Assembly (NCBI GenBank): GCA_011364905.1
Contig: RDNZ01000002.1
Span: forward strand, 37,994-101,993
Origin: Candidatus Thorarchaeota archaeon
Lineage (GTDB): Archaea; Asgardarchaeota; Thorarchaeia; Thorarchaeales; Thorarchaeaceae
DNA length: 64,000 bases
Reading direction: 5' to 3'
In this document: piece after piece, positions 57,748 through 61,840 of the stretch
How the letters are laid out: every line of letters starts with the position of its first letter
Position numbering within the stretch: the first letter of the stretch is position 1
Position numbers and translations under genes: made by a program
Notes under the pieces: generated by a model
Database searches by the model: none
Told to the model about the DNA's origin: nothing
What the model saw: the letters and a program-made list of their open reading frames with translations, nothing else

Positions 57748-57845
57748 GCTAACTCCAATGTGGGTTGCTGCGATGACAAATAGATATTGTGCACCCCAAA
57801 GGACATGCTTATTTCGTACTCATCGCAAATTTGAGATGGCTCAAA

Positions 57846-58124
57846 ATGAGAATCAAGGCAGTTTTTCGCGATGCAGAGATTTTGAAAATGGAAGAGGGAT
57901 CAAAGGAGAGAGTTATGGCTGTTGCACAGAAGAACCTAGACCGGGTTGTGAACCTGCCAAAACTCCTCAAGGTGATGGGTCTTGAGTTTGATAAGCGATG
58001 CCTCATGCTTGATGTATTGAAGGACTCGAAGTTTCATATATGGCTGCTCAACGATTCGGAGCAACATCTGATTTACATGAATGAGGAAAAGGAAGCCACT
58101 CCCGGTGGGTACATGTGGCAATAG
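57846..58124 (+). CDS. Small hypothetical protein
   Basis: 92-aa frame from MRIKAVF; convergent with the GTPase gene. Confidence 0.6.
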   Translation: MRIKAVFRDAEILKMEEGSKERVMAVAQKNLDRVVNLPKLLKVMGLEFDKRCLMLDVLKDSKFHIWLLNDSEQHLIYMNEEKEATPGGYMWQ

Positions 58125-58131
58125 AATAACT

Positions 58132-58839
58132 CTAAGTATGAGGGACCAGTTCTTTACATCTCCGATCCAGACACATCGCACAAGCATCATCGCAGTTAGG
58201 CTGAGTTCCGTGTCTAGTGTGTTGCGCCATACAAACCAGTTCCGCAAGTTCACTTCGTAGCTCAGGAATCCCAGTTCCAGTAATATTAGAAACGTAGGTC
58301 TGTTCTACACATCCACGATAGTCAGGAATCGTGTTTTCGATATTAGATCTAACAAAACCAACTGCTTGCTGCACTTGCTCTGGTTTTACATCAAAAGGAG
58401 TAATGTCAAGGTGAGTTCCAACAAGAACAACGTTTGTGAAGTTCTTGATTAGGTCATTCATGATTGCTGTTTCCAGCCAAGACTCTAGAACCGCAAGAGT
58501 GCGGAATTCGCTGAGCTTGTAAACAAGCAACACAACTGAGATGTTCTGCATATTGGGCATGAAGGAATAGGTTTCCATTATCTTCTCAAAAGTTCCCAGC
58601 TCTTCGGCTTGATCGACGCTTCTTTGCCCTGGCGGAACATACATCTGGAGCAGAATGGCTTCGTCAGAGGTCGTGCATTTACAGTTCACAAACTCGAACT
58701 CCATGTTGACTGTCTTTTTGAGACCATCAATGCATTCGATTCTAGTTGTTCCATCAGTGAATTCAGCCATAGCTTTTGAGAGAGCGGTCTTTCCAACACC
58801 ACCATCCCCTATGGGGAATATTGAACCGGTGACAGTCAT
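58132..58839 (-). CDS. Atypical small GTPase (Roc/Rab-like) with Cys-rich C-terminus
   Basis: G1 GDGGVGKT, G2 Thr in KTVNMEF, G3 VPPGQ (no Asp), G4 VGTHLD. Start ATG 58839 with GAGGT overlapping the upstream stop. Confidence 0.85.
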   Translation of the reverse strand: MTVTGSIFPIGDGGVGKTALSKAMAEFTDGTTRIECIDGLKKTVNMEFEFVNCKCTTSDEAILLQMYVPPGQRSVDQAEELGTFEKIMETYSFMPNMQNISVVLLVYKLSEFRTLAVLESWLETAIMNDLIKNFTNVVLVGTHLDITPFDVKPEQVQQAVGFVRSNIENTIPDYRGCVEQTYVSNITGTGIPELRSELAELVCMAQHTRHGTQPNCDDACAMCLDRRCKELVPHT

Positions 58840-58849
58840 GCTATAACCT

Positions 58850-59479
58850 CTAGACTGGACGAGACTCTCCATGCGACCGGTATTTGTATGCATCATCAAG
58901 CTTTACCGGTATTTCACGCAGTCCGTCTTTGCATACATGGCGGGGATAAACAACCACCATCTTTAGTCCCATGCCAGCTTGAACATCAATACCTCGTTCA
59001 ATGCTATCAGCATGCGAACTGACAACATCAGCAAGACCGAACCTGAGATTCTCTTCACAGATGTTACACCTTATGCTATACGCCTTCGCACGAAATTGCT
59101 CCAAAGGAGGAGCATTCCCAACATACTTGGCAAACATCTCCCTCGCTTCCTCATCCGTCAGGGGTTTACCAGCAACGTTTCTCCAGAGTCCGAGACTGAT
59201 AACTGATACTAGAACTACATAGATAGCCCCGCCAAAATAGACGAAGGAAACCATCAAATCAAGAGATACCGGAAGAACGACATATCCCAAGAATGTTAGG
59301 AGTTGAAACAGATACATCATCAAGAAGAAACAGATGAAAGCAACTAGAATCCAGTATCTTCCTTGCAGTCCAAGTGGCCGCAAAACGCCAACTGTCTTCA
59401 GCGTAAGAATCAGTCCATAGACAATGCCAATGATACCTGCGAGGGTGATGACTACCTCAGGCGAAAACACTAGCTGCAT
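58850..59479 (-). CDS. Three-TM membrane protein with C-terminal putative Zn-binding domain (CxxC...HxC)
   Basis: Three hydrophobic helices then RCNIC...PRHVC; the stop lies 10 nt before the GTPase start. Confidence 0.8.
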   Translation of the reverse strand: MQLVFSPEVVITLAGIIGIVYGLILTLKTVGVLRPLGLQGRYWILVAFICFFLMMYLFQLLTFLGYVVLPVSLDLMVSFVYFGGAIYVVLVSVISLGLWRNVAGKPLTDEEAREMFAKYVGNAPPLEQFRAKAYSIRCNICEENLRFGLADVVSSHADSIERGIDVQAGMGLKMVVVYPRHVCKDGLREIPVKLDDAYKYRSHGESRPV

Positions 59480-59585
59480 GAATTCTTCCAGAAATTGTCG
59501 TATTATTAAGATTCCTCGTGTAACTTAGAACTGTGCTTTTGTTACATGATGCAAAAAGCCACAATTCTACCAGCAAGTTGACTTG

Positions 59586-60308
59586 CTAATTGTAATTTGA
59601 TAATCGCTTTTGGTAATCATCTGGGACAGAAATACCATGACCTAAAGCACTCTGAAGCAACTCAACGATATCACCCTGCAACCGGACTCTGTCATCTGCC
59701 AGATCTGATAATAGAACCTCTGGAGTTTCAACGTTTTCTTCGATTTTCGAAACAACATCAAGCTGTTCAAACAAAGTGTCTAGTAGAGAAAAGAAGACTA
59801 GTTCACTCTCGGGGTTATCATCAAGTTCCGATTTGATTTGGTCTTCCAGAATTAGTAAAACGTAACGGATTCCATCAAATGCATGAAGCTGATCACCATA
59901 TAGTTTGGCATGTTTTCTTCCAAGAGTCAAGGCTTCATCAGCTCTGCCCTCTGACAGTAGCAATCGGCAGAGGTCTTCAAATGCGCAATGACCCGGAGGA
60001 TTGTTGTTGAGGAAATCCCGATACAGCTTCTCAGCTTCTTCAGTTCTAAGGGATTGGTCCAACAGCCTGCCAAGTCCGCACACAGCATCTTCAGAGGAGG
60101 AGTCTCTCGATATGACAAACCGGAAGGTAGTTTCAGCCTCAGAATCTCTGCATAGTCGCGACTGTATGTATGCAAGTTTTGTAAGAAGCTCAAGATTCTC
60201 TGAATCATGCTCTAATTGCTTCTTGACGAGAACTTCAGCCTCAAGGTCACGGTCACTTTCACAGAGACTATTTGCCTCGTCAAGTACATCTTCAGATTTC
60301 TTCTTCAA
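59586..60308 (-). CDS. TPR-like helical repeat protein
   Basis: EAE......L...ENLE....LA; AVCGLGRLL......EAEKLYR. Start set at TTG 60308 to avoid overlapping cysS. Confidence 0.65.
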   Translation of the reverse strand: MKKKSEDVLDEANSLCESDRDLEAEVLVKKQLEHDSENLELLTKLAYIQSRLCRDSEAETTFRFVISRDSSSEDAVCGLGRLLDQSLRTEEAEKLYRDFLNNNPPGHCAFEDLCRLLLSEGRADEALTLGRKHAKLYGDQLHAFDGIRYVLLILEDQIKSELDDNPESELVFFSLLDTLFEQLDVVSKIEENVETPEVLLSDLADDRVRLQGDIVELLQSALGHGISVPDDYQKRLSNYN

Positions 60309-60394
60309 GCACGTGACCTTCTTCGCCGAATATATGATATAGGCAATATTTGCAGAGTCCTTTTTAAAGAGAATCTCCAAGACGCAATTGGGTA

Positions 60395-61840
60395 GTGAAG
60401 ATGCTAAAAGTATACAACACAAGGACCCGGTCGAAGGAAGAGTTTGTGCCAATTGAAGGAAACACGGTCCGTATGTATGTCTGTGGTCCTACTGTGTACG
60501 ATTATCCCCATATCGGAAATGCAAGGTCATTTGCTGTCTTTGATAGCATTCGAAGATACCTTGAGTACAGAGGTTACCGAGTCACGTACATAACCAACTT
60601 CACTGACATCGATGACAAGATGATCAATCGTGCTAATGAGGAAGGGATTGAGGTGTCTGAACTTGCGGCGAAGTTCATCAGTGAGTATCGCAAAATCGAG
60701 AAACAACTCAATCTGAAACCTGCTACAGTGAATCCTCGTGCAACAGAACATATCGATGACATAGTCGAAATGGTTGATCTCATCATCAAGAATGGATATG
60801 GCTATGATGTGCATGGCGATGTCTACTTCAGTGTTCCAGCGTTTGATGCCTACGGAAGCCTCTCACGAATCCCGATGGATGAACTCACATCTGGTGCAAG
60901 GGTCGAGGTGGATGAGAACAAAAAAGACCCACGCGATTTTGCATTGTGGAAAGCTGAAAAGCCTGGTGAGCCTTCATGGGATAGTCCATGGGGCAAAGGA
61001 CGCCCTGGTTGGCATGCTGAATGTTCAGTCATGGGCAGGCATTATCTGGGGCTACCGTTCGATATTCATGGTGGGGGGCAGGACCTGATATTCCCACATC
61101 ATGAGAATGAGATAGCTCAATCAGCAGCAGCTTATGGGATAGAAGTTCCTGTCAAGTATTGGTTCCACAATGGCTTTCTGACAATGGATAGTGAGAAGAT
61201 GTCAAAATCCGAAGGTAACTTCTCAACAGCTCGTGAGGTGCTTGACAACTACGACCATCAGGCAGTTCGCCTATATCTGGTCACTGGACAATACAGACAA
61301 CCTCTCGATTATAACGCAAAAGCTGTGACTCAGGCAATCCAGTCCCTTGAGCGCATCAAGAACGCTGCTGATTCTATCAGAGGCAGAATCTCAATCCTGG
61401 AAAGAATTGGCAGTCGCGAATCAGAGGATGATAAGAAGCTCGCAGAAGCAGCGAAAAAAGTGCGTGAGGGATTTGAGCGAGAAATGGATGACGATTTCAA
61501 TACTCCAGGAGCCCTCGCAGAAATCTTCGCCTTTGTCAGAGAGATCAACACACTCGTTGGTGATGTCGGAGGAGCAGCAGTGCTTCGAGAAGCCCTTGCA
61601 GTACTAACTGAATTGGTGGGAATTCTAGGAGTCAATCTCACGGATGCTAGCGCAACAGATGAAGGAGCTGCACTCACATCTGACACTCTAAAAGGAGTGA
61701 TCGAGTTTCTCCTTGAGCTTCGGGAAGAAGCCAGAAAGTCAAAGGACTTTGGGAAAGCGGATCAAATACGAGACCGCCTTAAGCAGATTGGTGTTGAGGT
61801 CAGCGACACTAAAGATGGACCAACGTGGAAACTGAGTTAG
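60395..61840 (+). CDS. cysS: Cysteine--tRNA ligase (class I)
   Basis: MYVCGPTVYDYPHIGNAR, NFTDIDDK, DFALWK, GRPGWHAECS, DIHGGGQDLIFPHHENE, KMSKS. Confidence 0.97.
   Translation: MKMLKVYNTRTRSKEEFVPIEGNTVRMYVCGPTVYDYPHIGNARSFAVFDSIRRYLEYRGYRVTYITNFTDIDDKMINRANEEGIEVSELAAKFISEYRKIEKQLNLKPATVNPRATEHIDDIVEMVDLIIKNGYGYDVHGDVYFSVPAFDAYGSLSRIPMDELTSGARVEVDENKKDPRDFALWKAEKPGEPSWDSPWGKGRPGWHAECSVMGRHYLGLPFDIHGGGQDLIFPHHENEIAQSAAAYGIEVPVKYWFHNGFLTMDSEKMSKSEGNFSTAREVLDNYDHQAVRLYLVTGQYRQPLDYNAKAVTQAIQSLERIKNAADSIRGRISILERIGSRESEDDKKLAEAAKKVREGFEREMDDDFNTPGALAEIFAFVREINTLVGDVGGAAVLREALAVLTELVGILGVNLTDASATDEGAALTSDTLKGVIEFLLELREEARKSKDFGKADQIRDRLKQIGVEVSDTKDGPTWKLS

Follow-up and report, generated by a model that had tools for sequence, protein, structure and literature searches.

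A conserved gene pair of a three-helix membrane protein with a candidate zinc domain and a Ras-like GTPase without the G3 aspartate in Thorarchaeota and Chloroflexota, a putative sensor-GTPase signalling module

The G3 aspartate (Asp) of small GTPases positions Mg2+. Membrane-anchored or zinc-containing regulators of small GTPases that retain the catalytic Gln include Sec12, which acts on Sar1, the zinc-finger ArfGAPs and Mss4, which acts on Rab. Small GTPase operons with a dedicated partner are already known, namely MglA/MglB, the actinobacterial conservons (CvnA-D) and the Rup group 1 (Rup1) systems. Loss of the G3 Asp is a hallmark of MglA, where the motif reads TVPGQ or GTPGQ (Wuichet & Sogaard-Andersen 2015, PMC4316618). 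In the conservons and Rup1 a membrane sensor is genetically coupled to a small GTPase, which was proposed to be the output of the system in place of a response regulator (PMC4316618). GltJ from the gliding machinery of Myxococcus is a membrane protein with a cytosolic zinc domain and a linker which engages MglA-GTP; its zinc ribbon (ZnR), an N-terminal four-Cys ribbon of 42 amino acids (aa), binds MglB and the linker, not MglA (PMC11135422). Asgard archaea encode dozens of Ras-superfamily GTPases, among them Rab-like/RasL and Rag-like members (PMC10933270; Vargova et al., bioRxiv 10.1101/2024.02.28.582541), and in Lokiarchaeon MK-D1 the small GTPase genes generally lie outside Roadblock/longin/TRAPPC3 operons, so that gene order gives little hint of their partners (Tran et al. 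2024, PMC10933270). Here we describe two adjacent genes in a stretch of 64,000 nucleotides (nt) from Candidatus Thorarchaeota archaeon (assembly GCA_011364905.1, contig RDNZ01000002.1, positions 37,994 to 101,993), in the following called the window. They encode a membrane protein with a conserved Cys/His domain, which we name ZnD, and a Ras/Rab-like small GTPase without the G3 Asp, and might together form a signalling module.

58850..59479, minus strand: gene 1, membrane protein of 209 aa with ATG start
58132..58839, minus strand: gene 2, Ras/Rab-like GTPase of 235 aa (Pfam, AlphaFold2, Foldseek)

With MglA/MglB the pair shares a prokaryotic Ras-superfamily GTPase that has lost the G3 Asp, has kept PGQ and is encoded alongside a dedicated partner. 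It differs in that the partner is not a Roadblock/LC7 protein, the residues before PGQ are [VI][PFM], a Lys precedes the switch-I Thr and the G4 motif is often THxD. The genetic coupling of a putative membrane sensor to a small GTPase resembles the conservons and Rup1, but a conservon contains a complete histidine kinase, a Roadblock protein and CvnC, whereas the present unit has two genes, no kinase and ZnD instead. GltJ is similar as a membrane protein with a cytosolic zinc domain and a GTPase-binding linker; ZnD, however, comprises about 80 aa, has ligands of CCHC type, lies at the C-terminus, lacks a fold match in the PDB and is not homologous to ZnR. Sec12, the ArfGAPs and Mss4 offer a conceptual analogy only, gene 1 being without a Pfam ArfGap match and without a Foldseek match. 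Within the Asgard archaea gene 2 is one of many Ras-superfamily members; unlike the MK-D1 GTPases it has a specific partner encoded alongside, and its family is shared with Chloroflexota. As the initial annotation of this locus had supposed, no matching system turned up in the literature on small GTPases (PMC4316618, PMC10933270, bioRxiv 10.1101/2024.02.28.582541), in a paper on conflict systems (PMC7159879) or in full-text searches. The partner domain, the GTPase subfamily and the sensor-to-GTPase architecture seem undescribed.

The ZnD gene adjoined a gene for a GTPase of the Asp-less family in every locus with a full-length ZnD that was examined. Such loci were found in Thorarchaeota (the window, L001, L002, L004, L006, L008, L009 and L010), in two other Asgard families (L011-L014, two of which carry tandem GTPases) and in Chloroflexota (L026-L029 and L031-L033), including the cultured Leptolinea tardivitalis YMTK-2. 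The initial annotation had made its proposal depend on linkage of the pair in other genomes, and the gene-neighbourhood survey found this linkage in all of these loci. The two genes usually overlapped or were separated by no more than 11 nt (an 11-nt gap in L001 and L004, elsewhere a 1-nt gap or overlapping start and stop codons), and their order was reversed once, in L029. Flanking genes were unrelated between clades. All partner GTPases lacked the G3 Asp and read [VI][PF]PGQ, and this signature, with THxD or NKxD as G4, occurred nowhere else in their genomes. The genome of the window had a single copy of each gene, and close homologues of both proteins carried the annotation Candidatus Thorarchaeota or Promethearchaeota.

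A distribution survey of 400 Asgard genomes, in which statements of absence are bounded by the incompleteness of metagenome-assembled genomes (MAGs), showed matching patterns of presence for both genes. In Thorarchaeota the same 6 genomes carried ZnD and the GTPase, and 24 genomes of the window's genus carried neither; both were likewise present in the same 3 genomes of family f10. Distance matrices of ZnD and of the GTPase were correlated with r = 0.91, a value reached by 0 of 5000 Mantel permutations, and unrooted trees of the two proteins recovered the same three clades. These comparisons support the view that the two genes form one functional unit, which has been conserved and inherited as a whole.

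We divided gene 1 into a membrane module, a linker and ZnD.

59171..59479, minus strand: three-helix membrane module, gene 1 residues 1-103 (AlphaFold2 helices, profile matches and hhalign)
59090..59170, minus strand: juxtamembrane linker helix, residues 104-130 (alignments; AlphaFold2 helices 109-120 and 126-130)
58853..59089, minus strand: ZnD, beta-rich domain of about 80 aa, residues 131-209 (conservation; AlphaFold2 with a predicted local distance difference test score, pLDDT, above 90)
59066-59068, 59057-59059, 58937-58939 and 58931-58933, minus strand: codons of the putative zinc ligands C138, C141, H181 and C183, respectively (conservation)

The three transmembrane (TM) helices noticed initially were recovered in an AlphaFold2 model of gene 1 (input of 26 diverse homologues, mean pLDDT 91.8) at residues 7-36, 39-63 and 73-103, followed by a soluble domain of helix plus beta structure up to the C-terminus. 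According to the positive-inside rule applied to these helices, the N-terminus is predicted to lie outside and the first loop and the C-terminal ZnD in the cytoplasm. The three-helix module alone matched the N-termini of at least 12 bacterial signalling proteins in a profile search, the match partners being PAS-GGDEF-EAL, PAS-GGDEF, GGDEF-EAL, hybrid histidine kinase and PAS-histidine kinase proteins. Its alignment with the N-termini of kinases and c-di-GMP enzymes reached an hhalign probability of 98.9% (E 1.8e-17, 99 columns), compared to 2.5% for reversed sequences as a control. A W, FFxxGY, a P and GGAxFV are motifs common to the module and its bacterial homologues. The likeness to input domains of bacterial kinases and cyclases that had been proposed for the TM region was thereby corroborated, and judged from these alignments the region is homologous to the membrane modules at the N-termini of histidine kinases and GGDEF/EAL proteins in bacteria. 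Pfam contained no model for the module, which seems to be a membrane input domain not yet described.

The three-helix module is widespread at the N-termini of histidine kinases and GGDEF/EAL proteins (e.g. P0104, P0105, P0111, P0116, P0118 and P0128). In other Asgard families matches confined to the TM region were to short open reading frames (ORFs) with E values of 1e-5 to 1e-9. The linker helix that follows the module showed the motif G-x3-[ST]-D-x2-A-x3-F with near-invariant G104, A112 and F116, which was also kept in soluble variants of about 270 aa described below.

In ZnD the residues C138, C141, H181 and C183 were invariant in 26-28 homologues with identities down to 23%, in agreement with the initial description of a soluble CxxC...HxC domain. 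G171 and D195 were further invariants, and G163, E189, R201 and R207 were near-invariant. Since four invariant residues of ligand type are placed on two hairpins, they indicate a structural zinc site, and we infer that ZnD binds zinc. Invariant D195 and near-invariant E189, R201 and R207 are candidates for contacting a GTPase active site that has no Asp of its own. No Pfam or NCBIfam family scored above cut-off for gene 1, a profile search of the PDB found nothing, and a Foldseek search of the PDB with the full-length model including the TM helices gave no fold match (best E 0.098). When 16 ZnD sequences were scanned against Pfam at E ≤1, no family recurred. Toprim_Crpt, the sole weak match (E 0.028), lay outside the Cys motif and was rejected as the family of ZnD, as were the known zinc partners of GTPases (ArfGAP, Mss4, TackOD1 and classical zinc ribbons), to which gene 1 showed neither a sequence nor a fold match. 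Every ZnD protein named in the databases was called 'hypothetical protein', and a fusion to a RagA-like GTPase described below was labelled 'ADP-ribosylation factor-like protein'.

For gene 2 the following elements were located.

58786-58809, minus strand: G1 motif GDGGVGKT, gene 2 residues 11-18
58624-58638, minus strand: G3 motif VPPGQ in place of DxxGQ, residues 68-72
58405-58419, minus strand: G4 motif GTHLD, residues 141-145
58171..58233, minus strand: Cys-bearing C-terminal tail, residues 203-223 (alignment of the Thorarchaeota clade)

The start of gene 2 was set to the ATG at 58839, which is backed by the N-termini of 15 homologues and makes a longer TTG-initiated ORF unnecessary. Its G1, G3 and G4 motifs and Thr43 as G2 were as first read; G5 is SN (184-185), and G11, G16, K17, G71, Q72, D145 and S184 are invariant in the family. 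Pfam Ras (PF00071) matched with 28.9 bits against a cut-off of 21.6 (E 1e-6). The AlphaFold2 model (pLDDT 81, with low confidence at residues 213-235) was matched best by Rab7, H/K-Ras and Rab4/8 in Foldseek, with a probability of 1.0 and TM-scores of 0.76-0.86, and the best PDB sequence matches were Rab12 and Rab14. The initial annotation had suggested Foldseek comparisons for each domain; the one for gene 2 identified relatives, and the one for gene 1 did not. By its domain matches and predicted fold, gene 2 is a Ras-superfamily small GTPase, Ras/Rab-like and without the G3 Asp. This Asp was absent in 19 of 19 family members read, all with PGQ kept (consensus [VI][PFM]PGQ), and the family retained the P-loop, the switch-I Thr/Ser, the catalytic Gln and the guanine-specificity Asp. 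A Lys, not an Arg, stands before the switch-I Thr. The G4 motif varied: GTHLD was found in the Thorarchaeota and Chloroflexota clades and NKxD in the sister Asgard clade, and the THxD form was seen in the window, in Chloroflexota and in members of Heimdall type.

THLD is also the G4 motif of LRRK2, and gene 2 had initially been called Roc-like. This assignment did not hold, as Pfam Roc (PF08477) scored 16.6 bits and thus below its 27-bit cut-off, the nearest structures were Rab7, Ras and Rab4/8, THLD is variable within the family, and loss of the G3 Asp marks MglA rather than Roc (PMC4316618). A ROCO protein was rejected as well, the 235 aa containing no COR, no LRR and no further Pfam domain, and in this point the initial reading had been right. 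Membership of the MglA family was not supported either: gene 2 shares with MglA only the loss of the Asp, has no Roadblock neighbour, and its PDB neighbours are Rab and Ras proteins. There was no MglA among its listed PDB matches (the top 60 by sequence and top 50 by structure, consisting of Rab, Ras, Rho and Thor-Rab), a phylogeny with MglA sequences not having been made. None of the loci examined had a Roadblock gene next to the GTPase; MglB was not searched for genome-wide.

The C-terminal tail of gene 2 contained C203, C220 and C223, which were invariant in 16 of 16 aligned GTPases of the Thorarchaeota clade; the tail was absent in Chloroflexota and the other Asgard members. Altogether five Cys were conserved in GTPases of the Thorarchaeota clade and absent elsewhere, namely C36 in switch I, C55 in the turn between beta2 and beta3, and the three of the tail. 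These five residues may form a second metal or redox site tying the tail to the switch region.

An exhaustive profile search of 1.84 billion representative proteins with gene 1 yielded only 34 clusters at E ≤1e-10. ZnD occurred in three architectures. Besides the three-helix form, ZnD was found behind a soluble N-domain of about 145 aa in proteins of about 270 aa, which were encoded by Leptolinea tardivitalis YMTK-2 and Leptolinea MAGs and each followed by an overlapping gene for a VPPGQ/GTHLD GTPase. The Leptolinea protein of 285 aa is soluble throughout. This soluble N-domain also heads two histidine kinases of the cyanobacterium Microcoleus, and the junction is at the same helix. Since both the three-helix module and the soluble N-domain head kinases or cyclases in other proteins, ZnD occupies the position of the transmitter, i.e. 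of the kinase or cyclase, in both architectures. Pfam did not recognise the soluble N-domain, which is probably a further input domain that has not been described. It is encoded in L031 (2932-3789) and in the adjacent Microcoleus kinase genes of L034 (2932-4287 and 4398-5774), with motifs LPGV...G.ISR..FFEK.G..FG.

In the third architecture, of about 407 aa, a RagA-like GTPase (Gtr1/RagA, Pfam E 9e-36) is followed by a middle region and a C-terminal ZnD; these proteins are members of the Rag/Gtr group of Asgard archaea. They were present in most genomes of two Heimdall-type families, and one cluster member was annotated as Candidatus Heimdallarchaeaceae. In at least 15 genomes with RagA-ZnD a GTPase of the Asp-less family (140-168 bits) was encoded 6-12 kb away on the same contig, with the motifs I[FM]PGQ and GTH[LY]D. 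Gene content was examined in two of these clusters (families f8 and f13).

L035 1595-9687 (G015:C1): four-gene cluster
L036 1336-9612 (G085:C55): four-gene cluster

Both showed the same order of an Asp-less GTPase, a protein of 1440-1535 aa without Pfam or PDB match, a Rag-like GTPase of 490-565 aa bearing a long acidic tail, and RagA-ZnD, whose gene is convergent.

Strict adjacency, the shared GTPase signature, matching distribution, co-evolution, the exchange of domains in front of ZnD, its fusion to and clustering with GTPases and its predicted cytoplasmic location together point to ZnD as a sensor output domain which engages its cognate GTPase, and we consider it fairly probable that the two genes constitute a self-contained signalling module. 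Gene 1 would be the input, in which the intramembrane three-helix module is followed by the linker helix and then by ZnD where a kinase or cyclase output normally sits. Gene 2 would be the cognate receiver, a dedicated Asp-less Ras/Rab-like GTPase. The linker helix and ZnD would engage the GTPase on the cytoplasmic side, ZnD binding it directly at the membrane, so that a signal in or at the membrane could change the nucleotide state of the GTPase, its membrane residence or both. ZnD might act as an exchange factor, as a GTPase-activating protein (GAP) or as a co-factor of the active site, and the GTPase would relay the signal to effectors. The output proposed initially, a Cys/His domain plus a GTPase, agrees with this arrangement. 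Gene structure, motif conservation, strict adjacency, co-inheritance, the exchange of domains and the fusion to Rag-like GTPases are observed here; physical contact, the direction of signalling and biochemical activity are, like zinc binding, inferred.

Several observations weigh against this interpretation. The extracytoplasmic part of gene 1 would consist of about 7 N-terminal residues and a loop of about 9, in total about 16 residues. With so small an outward surface, the term sensor, which the initial annotation had used, draws its support from input modules of unassigned ligand to which the TM module is homologous, and any sensing by gene 1 would have to be intramembrane or occur via another protein. 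A classical arginine-finger GAP is not indicated either, since R188 was lost in several 270-aa variants and no single Arg was invariant across ZnD; we therefore make no commitment to GAP activity. Adjacency and co-inheritance as such give neither signalling direction nor activity. Within the window's genus the distribution was patchy, the pair being found in 5 of about 29 genomes. Seven genomes of family f8 had a 'type A' GTPase and no ZnD match of any kind, and most genomes of genus g28 in this family were without a three-helix ZnD gene at the locus, where the GTPase lies beside an ArsP-like permease. This arrangement looks like loss of the sensor gene, and such ZnD-less GTPases indicate that the pairing can decay.

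The 'type A' GTPase is characterised by VFPGQ and NKxD and by its position beside the ArsP-like permease (L038 2789-5267, L039 2404-3066, L040 1135-3598). In two genomes of family f8 (G019 and G022) a three-helix ZnD gene lay between the permease and the 'type A' GTPase. With respect to the patchy occurrence in the window's genus, the Thorarchaeota GTPases share GTHLD with the Chloroflexota clade and not with the other Asgard clade. Both observations together suggest a transfer between Chloroflexota and Thorarchaeota, the direction of which is not given by unrooted trees.

The same two genes could also be read with the direction reversed, so that the GTPase is upstream and the ZnD protein is a membrane effector or anchor that docks the GTP-bound GTPase, with the TM module as a tether. 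The binding of MglA-GTP to the cytosolic region of GltJ, and SR-beta with SR-alpha, would be the models. We regard this main rival as unlikely. In its favour, Asp-less GTPases outside the Thorarchaeota clade have no lipidation signal, ZnD stands C-terminal to the GTPase in the RagA fusions, which is the usual position of an output, and gene 1 has hardly any loop on the outer side of the membrane. GltJ moreover provides the precedent of a zinc-ribbon membrane protein whose adjacent cytosolic linker binds an Asp-less GTPase (PMC11135422). A pure tether, however, would need no intramembrane motifs as conserved as W, FFxxGY, P and GGAxFV, the three-helix module and the soluble N-domain both sit at the input position in histidine kinases and c-di-GMP enzymes, and the soluble 270-aa variants are without any membrane anchor. 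In another explanation a metal, for instance zinc, would be bound and handed on by the Cys/His domain together with the Cys-rich tail of the GTPase, and the GTPase would be an NTPase resembling a metallochaperone. The CxxC...HxC motif, the five conserved Cys of the Thorarchaeota clade and the ArsP-like permease, thioredoxin-like protein and ArsR-type regulators among the neighbours in some loci would fit, but this seems very improbable to us, given that the GTPase belongs with Ras and Rab rather than with the G3E metallochaperones, that the Cys tail is absent outside Thorarchaeota, that a three-helix module of kinase/cyclase type is not a transporter, and that a compact beta domain with four invariant ligands is consistent with a structural role of the zinc.

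A mobile module for defence or conflict, in which a GTPase switch and its membrane partner act against phages or other invaders, would account for the patchiness within the genus, the variable flanking genes and the sharing between Chloroflexota and Asgard archaea that suggests horizontal transfer. We consider it very improbable. PADLOC gave no match for either gene, for three ZnD representatives of other architectures or for two neighbouring genes; no effector domain (nuclease, pore or protease) is encoded, and the pair is unlike the DO-GTPase/GAP1 conflict systems (PMC7159879). Within the genus the pair is moreover syntenic between the housekeeping genes for cysteinyl-tRNA synthetase (CysRS) and a GNAT, and RagA-ZnD occurs in most sampled genomes of the Heimdall-type families. 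That the two genes are chance neighbours without a functional link is hardly credible and contradicted by the comparative data: their proximity in the window would have to be coincidental in spite of adjacency in all full-length loci, in two domains of life and with differing flanks, and in spite of matching presence and absence, congruent trees and the fusion or clustering of ZnD with GTPases.

Returning to ZnD as the output domain of a sensor, the conservation of the pair offers one family of Asgard Ras-superfamily GTPases a genetically linked partner domain. ZnD replaces the outputs of kinases and cyclases behind recognised sensor modules and is also fused to Rag-like GTPases. Family databases could gain from this two input modules that are apparently new to description and one zinc domain that is likewise undescribed. 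The occurrence of the pair in cultured Leptolinea tardivitalis YMTK-2 opens it to biochemistry, and perhaps to genetics, without uncultured archaea. If ZnD were only a docking site, it would still be a new family of partners for prokaryotic small GTPases, with less far-reaching implications.

A bolder proposal, which we put forward tentatively and regard as possible though rather doubtful, is that ZnD defines an unrecognised GTPase-based 'two-component' system shared by Chloroflexota and Asgard archaea, with interchangeable inputs and one Asp-less Ras-like receiver. The inputs would be the intramembrane three-helix module, the soluble N-domain of kinase type or a Rag-like GTPase with a middle domain. 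ZnD might then serve as an exchange factor, or donate in trans an acidic or basic residue missing from the impaired active site (invariant D195; near-invariant E189, R201, R207). If this were true, Rag-like GTPases would be coupled to a Ras-like GTPase as a cascade within the conserved four-gene cluster of Heimdall type, and signalling from receptors to small GTPases, as well as that of Rag type, would have a prokaryotic precedent in the closest lineage to eukaryotes.

The junction of the two genes and their surroundings in the window contained the following features.

58840..58852, minus strand: junction with the gene 1 stop codon TAG (58850-58852), a Shine-Dalgarno sequence GAGGT (58846-58850) and the spacer to the ATG of gene 2
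59500..59510, minus strand: AT-rich TATA-like element, CTTAATAATAC on this strand, 21-31 nt upstream of the gene 1 ATG
59586-60452, minus strand: gene for a TPR-repeat protein, upstream of the pair
57789-58124, plus strand: convergent ORF of 111 aa, its stop 7 nt from the gene 2 stop

The two-gene unit on the minus strand was organised as first described, with a 10-nt gap (58840-58849) and a ribosome-binding site overlapping the stop codon: the sequence reads TAG-AGGTTATAGC-ATG, and the first G of GAGGT is the last base of the gene 1 stop codon. The TATA-like element is a candidate promoter of archaeal type, from which both genes could be transcribed without a leader or with a short one. Two genomes of the same genus had the TPR gene, of which a third (L006) kept only about 44 residues at the N-terminus. 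As it was truncated or absent in L006 and absent from L001, L004 and L010, it was rejected as a third component of the unit. The 111-aa ORF matched no family. Since counterparts with 56-63% identity occurred in three genomes of this genus, the ORF probably represents a real gene; it is conserved only within the genus and was rejected as a member of the unit. The order within the genus was GNAT, 111-aa ORF, gene 2, gene 1, TPR gene and CysRS, with the TPR gene being dispensable.

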